From Escherichia coli (GTDB lineage: Bacteria; Pseudomonadota; Gammaproteobacteria; Enterobacterales; Enterobacteriaceae): a stretch of 64,000 nt of DNA. The first letter of the stretch is position 1, and every line of letters begins with the position of its first letter. The position numbers and the translations under genes are program-made. Below the pieces are notes generated by a model. It ran no database searches. It was not told the DNA's origin and was given only the letters and a program-made list of their open reading frames with translations. Below, in pieces: positions 1-21,334 of this stretch. The stretch lies in NCBI RefSeq assembly GCF_001677475.2, contig NZ_CP015229.1. One strand, written 5' to 3'.

Positions 1-87
1 TGGTGCGAGGGGGGGGACTTGAACCCCCACGTCCGTAAGGACACTAACACCTGAAGCTAGCGCGTCTACCAATTCCGCCACCTTCGC
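1..87 (-). tRNA. leuQ: tRNA-Leu (anticodon CAG), 87 nt, ends CCA
   Basis: Reverse complement of 1..87 reads GCGAAGGTGGCGGAATTGGTAGACGCGCTAGCTTCAGGTGTTAGTGTCCTTACGGACGTGGGGGTTCAAGTCCCCCCCCTCGCACCA, the E. coli Leu tRNA; adjacency to rsmC suggests leuQ. Window starts at the tRNA 3' end. Confidence 0.85.
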
Positions 88-16213: not shown

Positions 16214-16966
16214 ATGAACCTTGAAGCTTTACCAAAATATTACTCCCCAAAATCGCCAAAATTGAGTGATGACGCACCGGCGACAGGCTCGGGTGGTTTA
16301 ACAATAACAGATGTGATGGCTGCGCAGGGGATGGTGCAGTCGAAAGCTCCGCTTGGTTTTGCCTTATTCCTGGCAAAAGTTGGTGTTCAGGATCCTCAGT
16401 TTGCGATTGAAGGTCTGCTCAATTACGCGATGGCAATGGATAATCCGACATTGAACAAATTGAGTGAAGAAATCCGGTTACAGATCATCCCTTACCTTGT
16501 GAATTTTGCCTTTGCTGATTATTCCAGGTCTGCGGCAAGTAAGGCTCGCTGTGAGTATTGTGCTGGTACTGGATTTCATAATGTATTGCGCGAAGTGGTG
16601 AAACACTCCAGAAGCGGGGAATCTGTTATCAAGGAAGAGTGGGTGAAGGAACTATGTCAGCATTGCCATGGTAAGGGAGAAGTCAGCACAGCGTGCAGAG
16701 GGTGTAAGGGGAAAGGTATTGTCCTGGATGAAAAAAGAACCCGGCTTCATAGCACGCCTGTTTATAAGGTTTGTGGGCGTTGCAATGGAAACCGGTTTAG
16801 TCGTTTACCAACGACACTGGCGCGGTGTCATGTCCAGAAGCTGGTACCAGACCTGACGGATTATCAGTGGTACAAAGGATATGCAGATGTCATTGATAAA
16901 CTGGTTACAAAGTGCTGGCAGGAAGAAGCATATGCTGAGGTGCAATTAAGAAAAGTGACGAGATAA
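16214..16966 (+). CDS. Late-gene antiterminator Q (zinc-binding)
   Basis: 250-aa ORF with multiple CxxC motifs (CEYCAGTG, CQHCHGKG, CRGCKGKG, CGRCNGN); upstream of the lysis cassette. Confidence 0.75.
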   Translation: MNLEALPKYYSPKSPKLSDDAPATGSGGLTITDVMAAQGMVQSKAPLGFALFLAKVGVQDPQFAIEGLLNYAMAMDNPTLNKLSEEIRLQIIPYLVNFAFADYSRSAASKARCEYCAGTGFHNVLREVVKHSRSGESVIKEEWVKELCQHCHGKGEVSTACRGCKGKGIVLDEKRTRLHSTPVYKVCGRCNGNRFSRLPTTLARCHVQKLVPDLTDYQWYKGYADVIDKLVTKCWQEEAYAEVQLRKVTR

Positions 16967-17727
16967 ATGATTTTCACCGAACGATGGCGACATAACGATT
17001 GTATTTTCTAAGGAAACGTGCAAAGAGTTTTCCAATGATGAGCCTTATATGCATACCGGTGGAAAATATCAATAAGCCGCGCAGAGTGGTTTTTTTGTGG
17101 ACATAAACTTTGTGCAGAACGGTAACCATTATGGTTGCCGTGAATGCAGTTTTTTTACATTGCTGGCTTTTTTAGATTTGTGTTAGTTATTGATATTAAC
17201 AAGAAGGGGAAAAGACATGCTAAAACGGCAGGATATGAAGGAAACGGTTATGCGTGAATGTTCCAGTGTGATTAACCATATCATCTGGAGAAGCCATCCT
17301 GATGCAGGGAAGAGGTAACAGTAACGCGCATCAATCAGGCTGCAAATAAATGGCTTACGCCGGAAATCTGGCTATCGATGTATTACCGGTTTGTTACCCA
17401 TGAAGAAAATTAAGGTGATAACGAAACTGATTTTATAGGTGTCTTGTCAGAGTGTTGCGATGAAACTTGTGTTGGCAGTGCAGGGAAAACAGTAGGATGA
17501 AAATTATAAATTGCTTTAAATTAGCTTGATTTTCCTCATGTTATGAGATATTTGTCTTATATTGCTGGTTAATTATGAAAATTTTTGTAAATCTACAGCA
17601 ATAAAATCCATATTAATTAAAGCACTAGATGCGTTTCTGATTTGTGCATGAAACATACATATCATAATGATTAATTGCATCTATAATTACAGATACAGCA
17701 TTGTGCTGTTAAAAAACTGGAGTCCCC

Positions 17728-17835
17728 ATGAATACATTATATGTAAGTGATTCAAATGAAAAATCTCATGACAGGAATAAAAACAATGAGGATAGTAAGG
17801 GTAAGGATAATAAAAAAGACAACCGGAAAGAGTAA
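17728..17835 (+). CDS. Hypothetical 35-aa highly charged small protein
   Basis: ATG with upstream CTGGAG; MNTLYVSDSNEKSHDRNKNNEDSKGKDNKKDNRKE; hand-translated, below track cutoff. Confidence 0.25.
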   Translation: MNTLYVSDSNEKSHDRNKNNEDSKGKDNKKDNRKE

Positions 17836-17870
17836 ATAATCTTTCCTGCATAAAAATACTAGGGTGGAAT

Positions 17871-17990
17871 ATGTCAGAACATCCAGATTTTGATGACCGT
17901 AAGCCTGATGATGAGCCCGTTGAGCGTCCTGATGAGGGGCAACCATTGAACCCTTTTTCACCGGATGATAAAAGAGATCCTATTATTTAG
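17871..17990 (+). CDS. Hypothetical 39-aa acidic small protein
   Basis: ATG preceded by GGGTGG; MSEHPDFDDRKPDDEPVERPDEGQPLNPFSPDDKRDPII; followed by a terminator. Confidence 0.25.
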   Translation: MSEHPDFDDRKPDDEPVERPDEGQPLNPFSPDDKRDPII

Positions 17991-18044
17991 ATATAGCAGA
18001 ATATAGCCGTTTAAAGTAGGTTGTGTTTTGTTGCTATCCTTAAA

Positions 18045-18071
18045 CCACCTCCACAGGAGGTGGTTTTTTAC
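18045..18071 (+). terminator. Rho-independent terminator
   Basis: CCACCTCC-ACAG-GGAGGTGG followed by TTTTTTA. Confidence 0.7.
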
Positions 18072-18126
18072 TAATGGAACATTAATTGGCAGATGTGATT
18101 GTGTACAACTTATGGGAGGCTTAAGA

Positions 18127-18312
18127 TTATTTTCTGCCAATAATAAAACCAAGCGTTAACCCTATGCTTAGAGCAACCACCACGCTAGTCAGTGGATAAT
18201 TTCTAAATTTATCTTTAACGTTTTCTTTGCCTCCCTGCAAAGCATCGTCAGCACATGATGCATATTTTTTGACAGTATTAACTATTTCGTTTTCAGATTG
18301 ATTTGAAGTCAT
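18127..18312 (-). CDS. Small C-terminally membrane-anchored protein, DUF883 (ElaB/YqjD)-like
   Basis: C-terminus DKFRNYPLTSVVVALSIGLTLGFIIGRK resembles ElaB-family anchors; start taken at internal ATG. Confidence 0.35.
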   Translation of the reverse strand: MTSNQSENEIVNTVKKYASCADDALQGGKENVKDKFRNYPLTSVVVALSIGLTLGFIIGRK

Positions 18313-18765
18313 GTTTGAAGTCCTGATGTTAAGTGGCTTTTTAATTATAGCAGATATGCTTTCAATGATAGGGCGGAGAGTTGTTATTGAGGTGATACTA
18401 TGACCACTCAATCAACATTACATAAAATGACGTTTACTCCTGTTTGGCACAGTAGCAGAATTTTGCTTCTGCTACTGAAGTCGCTTTAGCACTAGAATAT
18501 GCAGATGGATAAAGCAGTTCAGCGTATGTACTGCGTCATGCATATCGGTCTTGCAGATATGACGAGAAGGGGAGACAAGGTGTGTGTAATGTAGAAGTCT
18601 TTAAAGTGCTGTCTGGGATAACTCTATACTGAAGTGCAATTGATAAAAGTAACACGATAAAGGTTTTTCAATGAAGATGGTAACGTGATGCTTGCATTTT
18701 TCAAAAAATATGGATAAAATTTTTTCAACGATGGGCTTTGTATACCCGACGTTAAGAAAAAGTAG

Positions 18766-18792
18766 AAAACCCGCTGATGAGCGGGTTTTGTG
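18766..18792. terminator. Bidirectional rho-independent terminator
   Basis: AAACCCGC-TGATGA-GCGGGTTTTG with T/A runs on both sides. Confidence 0.55.
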
Positions 18793-19081
18793 CTTTAAAT
18801 GGGGCAATGGTAATGTTGAATCTCATCCCGGGACTCATGTCTGTTAACTTATTATTTAGCTGGTGACTTGGTTATTTGCCTGATGTTTAAAATGTTTTCT
18901 TCCAGTACAATGTCCCTAAACACAATGAGTCTGCTTATTATATTATTAGCAGAGCTATTACGGCCAAAGTACAGCATAAGCTTTTAAAGCCAGTCAACCA
19001 GTCATCAAGACAGACGGGGTTATTCATAAAAACTCTCCATGTGTGATCCGATGGGGCCTGAAATTAAAGCTTTAATATAGC

Positions 19082-19294
19082 TCATGAAAGGTAAACATTG
19101 GCAGCTGAAGGGCCACGCAGAGCATTTATCCGGCAAAATTCCACGCGTAATCCGGTGGTAATTTCTTCTGCATCGCGGAGATTGAGCGCTGAAACATGAA
19201 GCTGGACATCGATACGACCATCGGATGGGGTGATAAGACCCTTGCCGCTTTTGCCGTCAAAGGTTTTGACAATTCCTGTCATTTTACGGGACAA
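19082..19294 (-). CDS. Cold-shock protein, CspF/CspH-like
   Basis: 70-aa [30 protein letters not shown]...; cold-shock domain; non-ATG start as in K-12 cspH/cspF. Confidence 0.85.
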
Positions 19295-19594
19295 AAAAAT
19301 TCCTTAATACTGATAACTTGGCGCACTATACACACGTTCCTGAAGAAAGCTATAGTTTTTTGATGGGGTTGAAGATGGCTGGATGTCTAAAATAAACATT
19401 GCTTCATATGTTCAACTATGCGTTAATGATTGCGTCGGTTTGAAGAACAGACGATATACGAAGTAGTTTACTAAAGCAGTTCTCATTTCAGGTGTTATTC
19501 ACTTATTCCTTCTTTGAGTCTCTCCAATTAAGTACGAAGTCGTTTCTGTTATACAAGCCATTTATGCCGAAAGGCTCAAGTTAAGGAATGTAGA

Positions 19595-19810
19595 ATGTCA
19601 AATAAAATGACTGGTTTAGTAAAATGGTTTAACGCTGATAAAGGTTTTGGCTTTATTTCTCCTGTTGATGGTAGTAAAGATGTGTTTGTGCATTTTTCTG
19701 CGATTCAGAATGATAATTTTCGAACCTTATTTGAAGGTCAAAAGGTTACCTTCTCTGTAGAGAGTGGTGCTAAAGGTCCTGCAGCAGCAAATGTCATAAT
19801 TACTGATTAA
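19595..19810 (+). CDS. cspB: Cold-shock protein CspB
   Basis: 71-aa [44 protein letters not shown]...; near-identical to recalled CspB; divergent from the cspF-like gene as in Qin. Confidence 0.9.
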
Positions 19811-20092
19811 AATTAATAGTTTGTCTGTATACGATAACGAAGAAGGCTGATGCCTGAGTGGAGATACAGACAGAGTGGTGAATATTGGATCTCTTTAATA
19901 AATAGTAAGGAGATCCAATACATGAAACAATGGCCAGCATATTTGGCAATAACTTAATCAGGAAAAGTATGCTAACCATTGTGGTGAAGTGCAGGTTTGC
20001 TGCATGAATAGTTTTACAGCAGAAGCTAACTGCTAGCATAGCAAAACAAAGTGCGTAAGTGGATGACTCCCACAAAAAGCACCACAATATTA

Positions 20093-20562: not shown

Positions 20563-20778
20563 ATGAAATCAATGGATAAGTTAACAACAGGTATCGCCTA
20601 TGGCACATCGGCTGGTAATGCTGGTTTCTGGGCATTGCAGTTACTCGATAAAGTAACTCCGTCACAGTGGGCTGCAATCGGTGTGCTGGGTAGTCTGGTT
20701 TTTGGCCTGCTGACATATCTGACAAACCTTTATTTCAAGATTAAAGAAGACAGGCGTAAGGTTGCGAGAAGAGAGTAA
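20563..20778 (+). CDS. Holin (phage 21 S / EssD-EssQ class II type)
   Basis: 71-aa ORF with two TM segments and charged C-terminus ([13 protein letters not shown]). Confidence 0.85.
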
Positions 20779-20782
20779 TCCA

Positions 20783-21334
20783 ATGACTCAAGACTATGAA
20801 CTGGTTGTGAAAGGAGTTCGCAATTTTGAGAATAAAGTGGCGGTAACTGTAGCCTTACGGGACAAAAAACACTTTGACGGTGAAATTTTTGACCTGGACA
20901 TCTCGCTGGACCGTGTTGAAGGTGCCGCGCTGGAGTTTTATGAGGCAGCAGCCAGAAGGAGCATCAGACAGGTCTTCCTGGATGTTGCTGCCGGGTTATG
21001 TGAAGGGGATGAGCAGTCGCCGGAAAAGCGCCCCATAATTTTAGAGGCGCAGAATGTGTGGATAACCTACAAAGGAAAGCTACCGGGAAGAATTACTGGT
21101 TCTCTGAAGACGCCACCGACGGCATTGCGGTCAGAAAAAGATGATATTGAATCGCCCATTGAAAAACTGGAGGGCAGCGTCGCTGATCTGAATAAAAAAT
21201 TGTCGGTGCTGATTCCTTCTGAAGATGAAAAAAAACGCCGCGATGAGCAGTTTGCGGCGTTTTACGATTATTGCATTGAAGTTACTCGCAGGAATTTTGT
21301 GAAGATTTTTGAGGAGGGTAAATCTCTTCAGTAA
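20783..21334 (+). CDS. Hypothetical protein between holin and endolysin
   Basis: 184 aa from ATG at 20783 (MTQDYELVVKGV...); no recognised motif; possibly YdfR-position gene. Confidence 0.4.
   Translation: MTQDYELVVKGVRNFENKVAVTVALRDKKHFDGEIFDLDISLDRVEGAALEFYEAAARRSIRQVFLDVAAGLCEGDEQSPEKRPIILEAQNVWITYKGKLPGRITGSLKTPPTALRSEKDDIESPIEKLEGSVADLNKKLSVLIPSEDEKKRRDEQFAAFYDYCIEVTRRNFVKIFEEGKSLQ

Follow-up and report, generated by a model that had tools for sequence, protein, structure and literature searches.

We analysed a stretch of 64,000 nucleotides (nt) of Escherichia coli DNA (assembly GCF_001677475.2, contig NZ_CP015229.1; the window in what follows), which is a Qin-like lambdoid prophage, and studied the segment 16967-19080, immediately after the antiterminator gene Q. 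With a probability of about 0.6, we interpret this segment as a recombination mosaic that carries a self-contained small cargo cassette, probably with a stress function expressed in the lysogen. The core of the cassette (approximately 17681-18352) consists, as its sequence signals indicate, of two convergent transcription units with one shared terminator: two tandem open reading frames (ORFs) for microproteins, ORF1 and ORF2, on one strand, and a gene for a 61-amino-acid (aa) predicted membrane protein on the other. The three genes appear as a module that is conserved in Enterobacter-type prophages, occupies a different slot there, and carries the marks of purifying selection. The cassette is a prophage moron in a recombination scar, an element of an ordinary class, and the findings overturn no current view of lambdoid mosaicism. 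The studied segment is 100% identical to strain A22, whose annotation by the Prokaryotic Genome Annotation Pipeline (PGAP) was used for gene calls; the coordinates of all features are given in Table 1.

The evidence for the module comes from relative loci fetched via the 61-aa homologue alone, without reference to the tiny ORFs. In Enterobacter wuhouensis (locus L013) and in viral contigs (L025-L032), homologues of ORF1 and ORF2 lie downstream of, and convergent with, the 61-aa homologue, their order unchanged; the 61-aa homologue itself is just 34-36% identical to the one in the window. The homologues of ORF1 show 35-42% identity (E-values from 1e-4 to 3e-6), and those of ORF2, 55% identity over 42 aa (7e-12 to 2e-11). 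The ATG codons and Shine-Dalgarno (SD) sequences of both ORFs align between the two lineages at the DNA level; indels are in frame, comprising 18 nt in ORF2 between the lineages and 6 nt within the L032 copy of ORF1. Between the lineages, nucleotide identity is 78% in the promoter and leader, 72% in ORF2, 55% in ORF1, 40% in the inter-ORF spacer, and 41% far upstream. The ratio of nonsynonymous to synonymous differences (pN/pS, Nei-Gojobori counts) is 0.40 for ORF1, 0.38 for ORF2, and approximately 0.55 for the 61-aa gene, with frame 0 free of stops; the other frames of ORF1 and ORF2 mostly show pN/pS near 1 or contain stops. The original prediction, made from the sequence alone, had placed two tandem tiny ORFs at exactly the coordinates of Table 1, where each has an ATG and an SD, and had named missing conservation in homologous prophages, together with missing transcripts, as the observations that would speak against them; the pair is conserved, together with the membrane gene, in distant prophages of another genus.

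Hence the case for ORF1 and ORF2 as real, protein-coding genes is good, resting on two lineages, and by these alignments they constitute two new, conserved, unannotated microprotein families. The predicted ORF1 product is neutral to slightly basic (isoelectric point 8-10) and very hydrophilic (grand average of hydropathy -2.5), with 2.9% Gly; that of ORF2 is acidic (isoelectric point 4.1; hydropathy -1.7), with 20% Pro and 2.6% Gly. Hydrophilins are defined by a hydrophilicity index above 1 and a glycine content above 6%; the hydrophilicity of both products falls in this range and their glycine content below it, and the label was rejected. PGAP calls neither ORF; ORF2 does appear among gene-caller predictions for Logan assemblies and two phage records. 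Both genes are absent from the RefSeq annotation of every carrier E. coli genome, including the Shiga toxin-producing E. coli lineage O121:H19, and are concrete targets for small-protein validation. Word-indexed protein searches with the 61-aa protein, ORF2, and the Enterobacter ORF2 return only near-identical copies, and tblastn of ORF2 against plasmids yields chance matches alone. A peptide-pattern scan of viral contigs and leader-pattern scans of viral contigs and metagenomes revealed no third ORF1-ORF2 lineage; the leader-pattern scans gave 65 metagenome matches, mostly to an unrelated gut gene family.

In the Enterobacter-type locus L026, the order on the late strand is Q, holin, endolysin, Rz spanin, a 65-aa gene with the motif NEWEDEGG, ORF1, ORF2, terminator, terminase small subunit, and terminase large subunit. 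The 61-aa homologue lies on the opposite strand, facing ORF1 and ORF2, so that the polarity of the module relative to the late genes is the same as in the window. The corresponding slot of Qin, between Rz and terminase, is occupied by cspI-ynfQ-ynfR-ynfN-gnsB. In a third lineage (L010, L021-L024), the NEWEDEGG gene is again found with the 61-aa homologue, but ORF1 and ORF2 are missing. The products of the NEWEDEGG gene form a family of acidic proteins of 62-68 aa with the invariant motif NEWEDEGG(A/S), encoded at L026 4871-5068 (-), L021 3587-3793 (-), L010 307-495 (-), and L013 1325-1522 (-); they stand beside the 61-aa homologue in two lineages, in two relative orientations, and are absent from the window. 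The family has no Pfam, PHROG, NCBIfam, or PADLOC match.

The distribution of the region and its dead fragments account for the mosaic part of the interpretation. Of 5426 complete E. coli genomes, 39 contain the full 2.1-kb region, as do two temperate phages known as isolates, PhiR63_1 and HannyBb, both of which carry the cassette. K-12 Qin and approximately 1250 other genomes match only from 18631 on (query position 1665), that is, over 18631-19080; in these genomes the start of the match overlaps the 3' end of ydfT, and Q is joined directly to the pR'-ynfS-cspF segment. Since the match starts inside the 3' end of ydfT, 18631-18660 would be a second Q 3' stump, and 16967-18630 extra DNA; the comparison with Qin, which had been suggested beforehand, thus gives approximately 1.66 kb of additional sequence between Q and the canonical late promoter. 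As expected of a moron, the extra segment is lacking in close relatives whose flanking genes are the same, and its nucleotide composition is deviant. The GC content is 0.29-0.43 over 16950-19050, compared to 0.45-0.59 in Q and the genes upstream of it, and 0.29-0.38 in the core, compared to 0.45-0.59 in neighbouring phage genes; the A-rich strand has an AT skew of +0.2. The longest ORF of the segment has 94 codons if started at TTG and encodes 61 aa with the ATG chosen by PGAP, in line with the original description of approximately 2 kb of AT-rich DNA after Q lacking any long ORF.

On the left side, 16967-17247 resembles the DNA that follows Q in SfV, mEp460, Stx2c phages, and others, at approximately 75% identity. 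Here a third small ORF with the SD AAGGGGAA had been proposed; the SD and the frame exist, but its status as a gene fails, as it shares only the SD and the first 10 codons (MLKRQDMKET) with SfV orf47, the homology ends at approximately 17247, and unrelated sequence follows. The intact SfV orf47 encodes 64 aa and belongs to phrog_331. The ren fragment contains an in-frame stop and a deletion (tblastn E 2e-6, with the stop within the match) and no ORF of at least 25 aa; the rha fragment contains two in-frame stops, also within the match (tblastn E 3e-8). The spacer between ren and the microprotein operon is 41% identical to the Enterobacter-type module, which is the background level. Taken together, the locus reads as a recombination mosaic with an insert bounded by dead fragments (a decayed pR'/tR', the orf47-type stump, ren, rha, and the Q 3' stump), and about half of the 2 kb, as judged from the ren, rha, and Q 3' remnants, is recombination debris and not cargo. 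For the core (approximately 17480-18390), no DNA relative was found in E. coli genomes, phages, or plasmids, except for a 47-nt match of the terminator hairpin. This match (18026-18072, hairpin with flanks) is 91.5% identical to a site in the ECOR29 chromosome just 3' of an N-6 DNA methylase gene, in an apparent integrative element, and is also seen in the Salmonella conjugative plasmid NZ_MH579767.1; it may represent a shared mobile terminator or a hint of the origin of the cassette.

The position of the cassette relative to the late promoter follows from two promoter copies. In an alignment of SfV, 720R4, PhiR47_1, K-12 Qin, and the window (18692-18735), a near-invariant element has the form GATGCTTGCAT-N17-TAAGAT/TAAAAT-TTTTTC-AACGATGGG and is followed by a strong hairpin; it can also be written as TTGCAT-N17-TAAGAT/TAAAAT...CAACGATGGG. 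We take AACGATGGG at the transcript start to be a sigma70-dependent pause element of the lambda pR' type, and the whole element is therefore read as the Q-loading late promoter. The Q protein of the window is 93% identical to K-12 QuuQ and 97% identical to SfV Q, hence one shared target, or specificity class, is expected. Copy 2 agrees with K-12 Qin at every aligned position of the element, differs very little from SfV, 720R4, and PhiR47_1, and is, we infer, the working pR'. Copy 1 is the sole outlier in the alignment: it has the N17 spacing and a one-base insertion upstream, carries AATGATGAG in place of AACGATGGG, and has lost the conserved T residues of the -10 element and the GGG of the pause element. 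Its hairpin (-8.5 kcal/mol, z-score -0.68) is no better than shuffled sequence; that of copy 2 reaches -23.9 kcal/mol (z-score -9.0), and the terminator scan lists this hairpin on the minus strand.

As copy 2 lies downstream of the cassette, the cargo would be situated between Q and pR', outside the Q-antiterminated late transcript where the Shiga toxin genes (stx) sit. The original prediction had likened the segment to the stx cargo site; accessory cargo is indeed present between Q and the lysis genes, but the analogy is positional only, since stx-like cargo is located downstream of a functional pR'/qut, and here the canonical copy is 3' of the cassette and the copy 5' of it is degenerate. 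A duplicated late-promoter region with one decayed copy offers a route for cargo to land outside the Q-dependent transcript, and the position "downstream of Q" alone calls for caution when induction-coupled expression is deduced from it.

The cassette has putative expression signals of its own. In the leader of ORF1, the C at position -13 is 17681, the predicted -10 element TATAAT is at 17682-17687, and the SD GGAG is at 17719-17722; the leader also holds the palindrome ACAGCA-TTG-TGCTGT (17695-17709) with 6-bp arms, whose loop differs between the lineages and which folds into a hairpin in both, no more stable than shuffled sequence (z-score -1.15). Upstream of the 61-aa gene, the putative extended -10 element TGCTATAAT (18352 to 18344) is part of TGCTATAATTAA (18352 to 18341), the Enterobacter lineage has TGCTATGATTAA at an equivalent distance from the start codon, and the -10 region TGCTATrATTAA is conserved in both lineages. 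For both units, the distance of the -10 element from the start codon is fixed between the lineages. The sigma-S -10 consensus is KCTAYRCTTAA; the -10 elements of the cassette resemble it, which is suggestive only. No convincing LexA- or Fur-type operator was seen by eye near the ORF1 promoter; a stretch there that partly resembles a Fur site is not shared by the Enterobacter lineage. The shared terminator, anticipated by the original prediction as a strong one after the tiny ORFs, has an 11-bp perfect stem (18042-18066), with U6 on the plus strand and only U3 on the minus strand, and folding energies of -18.2 and -17.8 kcal/mol, respectively (z-score about -3.1).

Table 1. Features of the studied segment and its flanks, with positions in the window
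Feature	Position	Strand	Basis and details
Q antiterminator, ydfT/quuQ type, 250 aa	16214..16966	+	PGAP of A22; left anchor, context
Degenerate late promoter pR', copy 1	16999..17042	+	-35 TTGTAT 16999-17004; -10 position AAAGAG 17022-17027
Weakened tR'-like hairpin of copy 1	17074..17099	+	Terminator scan; SfV equivalent annotated as terminator
orf47-type stump, 33-codon ORF	17217..17318	+	5' part of SfV orf47/phrog_331-type gene
ren pseudogene fragment	17324..17479	+	blastn ~74% identity to "protein ren" genes
Unique AT-rich spacer, ~29% GC	17480..17680	.	Upstream of microprotein operon; no homologue found
Putative promoter and 5' leader of microprotein operon	17681..17727	+	Best-conserved segment between lineages, 78% nt identity
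ORF1, 35 aa, MNTLYVSDSNEKSHDRNKNNEDSKGKDNKKDNRKE	17728..17835	+	ATG and SD
ORF2, 39 aa, MSEHPDFDDRKPDDEPVERPDEGQPLNPFSPDDKRDPII	17871..17990	+	ATG and SD
Predicted shared terminator of convergent genes	18042..18069	.	11-bp perfect stem; U6 on +, U3 on -
61-aa tail-anchored membrane protein (predicted), phrog_11629	18127..18312	-	PGAP CDS WP_000203370.1, hypothetical protein
Putative promoter and SD of 61-aa gene	18320..18352	-	Extended -10 element; SD AGGAC 18324 to 18320
rha (antirepressor) 5' pseudogene fragment, 61 codons	18400..18582	+	blastn ~79% to Rha/P22AR genes
3' stump of Qin-type Q gene	18631..18660	+	Stop codon 18658-18660; Qin homology resumes here
Canonical late promoter pR', copy 2	18692..18735	+	-35 TTGCAT 18692-18697; -10 TAAAAT 18715-18720; AACGATGGG 18727-18735
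tR' terminator of copy 2	18766..18798	+	Terminator scan
YnfS homologue, 29 aa, hydrophobic	18938..19027	-	PGAP CDS; Qin backbone, outside cassette
cspF	19082..19294	-	Next backbone gene
cspA thermoregulator (Rfam), cspB 5' leader and gene	19434-19873	+	159 bits, E 1.6e-42
cspB	19595..19810	+	Backbone gene
ynfU	After cspB		Backbone gene
Holin essQ	20563..20778		Backbone gene

The 61-aa protein matches phrog_11629 end to end (E 5e-47), and its relatives are 36-50% identical in an exhaustive HMMER scan and 34-57% identical in GTDB genomes and IMG/VR loci. The original prediction of a DUF883-like membrane ORF on the opposite strand holds, with the likeness to DUF883 being remote. The Pfam domain DUF883_C (PF19029) matches the protein alone weakly (E 0.2), while among 10 family members seven match at E ≤ 0.1, one of them at 5e-6; the family profile aligns with ElaB and YqjD in hhalign with a probability of 91% (E 1e-6) over 48 columns including the anchor, corresponding to ElaB residues 50-101. 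A 90-aa relative encoded in the Enterobacter sp. MGH 24 chromosome (L014 3884-4156) matches CsbD (2e-10), DUF883_C (5e-6), and NCBIfam ElaB (1.5e-7). The full DUF883 architecture of approximately 100 aa with an N-terminal domain is not seen, as the protein has 61 aa and no Pfam or NCBIfam match to that domain. In an AlphaFold2 model (mean predicted local distance difference test score 65), helices span residues 4-38 and 40-60 with a break at Pro40; no credible match for the family was found among solved structures. In our reading, the protein is a remote, tail-anchored ElaB relative of half the size, corresponding to the C-terminal half of ElaB; by itself it falls below every curated threshold. 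The 90-aa L014 protein, with a CsbD-like domain and a DUF883_C tail anchor, bridges phrog_11629 to ElaB; its gene adjoins a 282-aa ORF that by eye is an EAL-type cyclic di-GMP (c-di-GMP) phosphodiesterase. A miniature ElaB-like protein moving with microproteins between phages of different genera would be a compact, tractable handle on the poorly understood DUF883/CsbD family; a literature search found no paper linking DUF883 proteins to prophage cargo.

These observations suggest how the cassette may work. Because it lies upstream of the probable working pR', has conserved -10 elements of its own, and includes one unit antisense to phage transcription, both units probably rely on their own promoters for expression in the lysogen and are not Q-dependent late genes; during induction, early rightward transcription through Q would read the plus-strand operon as well. 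Chromosomal relatives of the 61-aa gene adjoin apparent YmgE/GlsB-like, UspA-like, and c-di-GMP genes. The likeness of the putative promoters (CTATAAT and TGCTATrATTAA) to those typical of stationary-phase (sigma-S) genes, the relation to ElaB, and these UspA-like and YmgE-like neighbours make a stress or stationary-phase role at the inner membrane, benefiting the lysogen, most likely. The two disordered microproteins would probably act with, or on, the anchored protein. A more specific and tentative proposal, which we consider possible but doubtful, is a mobile small-protein system, in which a half-size ElaB-like anchor with oppositely charged disordered microproteins (in relatives, also with the acidic NEWEDEGG protein) is shuttled between genera by lambdoid phages as a stationary-phase or stress lysogenic-conversion cassette. 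A possible action of such a three-protein system is to recruit or sequester a cytoplasmic target, e.g., ribosomes, at the membrane. As a separate observation, ORFs near 61-aa relatives in Silvania hatchlandensis L012 (2431-2679 and 1121-2161) and in L021 (4562-4996) were read by eye as YmgE/GlsB-type, GGDEF, and UspA-like.

Several points weigh against this interpretation. Only two ORF1-ORF2 lineages exist in all collections searched, hence the coding test compares a single pair of lineages over very short genes; an antisense frame in each ORF likewise has pN/pS of approximately 0.46-0.49; and of the 21 E. coli-type copies sampled, ORF1 has lost 2 nt in one and ORF2 has lost 1 nt in another. 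The 61-aa protein occurs in a third lineage (53-57% identity; L012, L019-L024) that has neither ORF1 nor ORF2, so the association with them is not obligatory. The protein lacks the N-terminal half of ElaB/YqjD, which is the part reported to bind ribosomes. The promoter assignments are sequence readings only, and a generic promoter scan does not list the predicted cassette promoters; the sigma-S-like consensus has 6 matches in the window against 4.7 expected, not above chance, and for this reason the resemblance is retained as a positional observation.

Among other explanations, a superinfection-exclusion or anti-phage cassette, in which the anchored protein would block entry of incoming phage DNA like HK97 gp15-type morons, with the microproteins as modulators or unrelated passengers, seems to us unlikely, though ahead of the remaining ones. 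The 61-aa family is indeed a phage-borne PHROG that recurs as prophage cargo in two slots, and a small single-pass inner-membrane protein encoded antisense to the late genes under its own promoter is a typical layout of prophage exclusion. Yet the 61-aa protein is a homologue of ElaB and YqjD, which are stress proteins encoded in the chromosome, its homologues are also found in chromosomal non-phage settings beside stress-type genes, and no PADLOC model matches ORF1, ORF2, the 61-aa protein, or the Enterobacter homologues at E ≤ 1; a known PADLOC anti-phage defence system was accordingly discarded. We find it improbable that the whole 2 kb is inert recombination debris with the tiny ORFs as chance frames in A-rich DNA and, if anything, the 61-aa gene alone functional. 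Reading frames of 35-39 codons abound in this DNA (the ORF listing has 97 of at least 25 aa within 6.5 kb), the A-rich strand accounts for their charged residues, pseudogene fragments make up about half of the region, PGAP passes over both ORFs, and two sampled copies carry frameshifts; however, at 35-55% protein identity, both ORFs retain their start, SD, and frame as well as their order and spacing in another genus, where the inter-ORF spacer is down to 40% nucleotide identity, and they show in-frame indels and pN/pS of approximately 0.4.

Two further possibilities rank lower still, at a level we regard as very slight for each. The plus-strand unit might mainly be a regulatory RNA (a small RNA or a dual-function one), with translation secondary: the most conserved part of the module, at 78% identity, is the 57-nt promoter and leader with its 6-bp palindrome, and the predicted transcript is short (approximately 375 nt), ending at a strong terminator. 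Against this, the conservation of ORF2 is close behind at 72% and follows the codon positions in the way typical of a coding sequence, no Rfam family matches, and the leader hairpin fails to exceed the stability of shuffled sequence, its stem offering no covariation to test. The other is Q-dependent late cargo of the stx type, transcribed on induction from a promoter directly after Q. The location between Q and holin, the common direction of ORF1, ORF2, and the late genes, and the Enterobacter phage module sitting inside the late operon between Rz and terminase all fit this scheme, but the post-Q promoter copy has lost the -10 T residues and the pause GGG, the canonical copy is 3' of the cassette, and the 61-aa gene is antisense to late transcription. 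A type I toxin-antitoxin pair was rejected because the convergent units have no antisense overlap beyond the shared terminator hairpin, with 136 nt between the stop codons, and because the membrane protein is an ElaB-family homologue.

Cargo of other known kinds was looked for with profile and RNA searches, and the claim that the segment holds neither a toxin nor a tRNA was borne out. ARAGORN finds no tRNA in 16967-19080, and cmscan against Rfam at E ≤ 1, a scan that had been suggested at the outset, gives nothing credible there, which disposes of a tRNA or known small RNA as cargo. The only Rfam match in the segment, to a eukaryotic C/D-box snoRNA in the AT-rich spacer (17600-17676, minus strand; 24 bits, E 0.71, gathering score 50), is regarded as chance. 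No toxin or known domain was found in the small ORFs by PHROGs, NCBIfam, Pfam, or PADLOC, apart from phrog_11629 in the 61-aa protein and phrog_331 in the intact SfV orf47.

Compared with known systems, the 61-aa protein resembles ElaB, YqjD, and YgaM in its predicted C-terminal glycine-zipper transmembrane anchor ending in basic residues and preceded by a helix; it differs from them in its length of 61 aa without the N-terminal half, in being phage-borne, and in being paired with two microprotein genes. With lambdoid morons (cspB, cspF, cspI, ynfQ, and gnsB of Qin; bor and lom of lambda) the cassette shares deviant composition, promoter-like and terminator elements, presence or absence between the same backbone genes, and location in recognised cargo slots (Q-to-holin and Rz-to-terminase). 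Its gene content, two microprotein families and phrog_11629, is new in comparison, as is its position upstream of the presumably functional late promoter, which would result from duplication of the promoter region and decay of one copy. The stx and tRNA cargo of Stx phages has a similar position between Q and the lysis cassette; unlike it, the window has no toxin, tRNA, or Rfam match here, and cargo placed ahead of the probable working pR' should not depend on Q for its expression. YnfS, YnfU, YnfQ, and YnfR of Qin are likewise very small proteins from the late region of the same prophage family, but ORF1 and ORF2 have no sequence similarity to them, are predicted to be hydrophilic and disordered as opposed to hydrophobic or zinc-binding, are absent from K-12, and are known from sequence alone.

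The YnfS homologue lies inside the studied coordinates, although the original prediction mentioned neither it nor the ren, rha, and Q 3' stumps and the two late-promoter copies, and is 96.6% identical to K-12 ynfS (b4750); in K-12, YnfS has been seen by tagging, and ribosome peaks are present at its start codon (bioRxiv 10.1101/511675). The match of the cspA thermoregulator at cspB is expected for the cold-shock genes of Qin. The two deletions in the microprotein genes are located as follows: that in ORF1 is in the complete genome L058 (strain 04-00955), at the equivalent of 17738-17739, with a frameshift at codon 4, and that in ORF2 is in the Logan contig L007, at the equivalent of 17970, near the end of the gene; they may be real mutations or assembly errors in short repeats. 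After the holin gene, annotations of the plus-strand ORF 20762-21334 conflict: A22, which is identical, has an incomplete YdfR-family pseudogene, and PhiR63_1 a 183-aa YdfR-family protein. The only tRNA of the window is a tRNA-Leu(CAG) gene at its very edge (1-87, minus strand), which may be an integration site of a mobile element.

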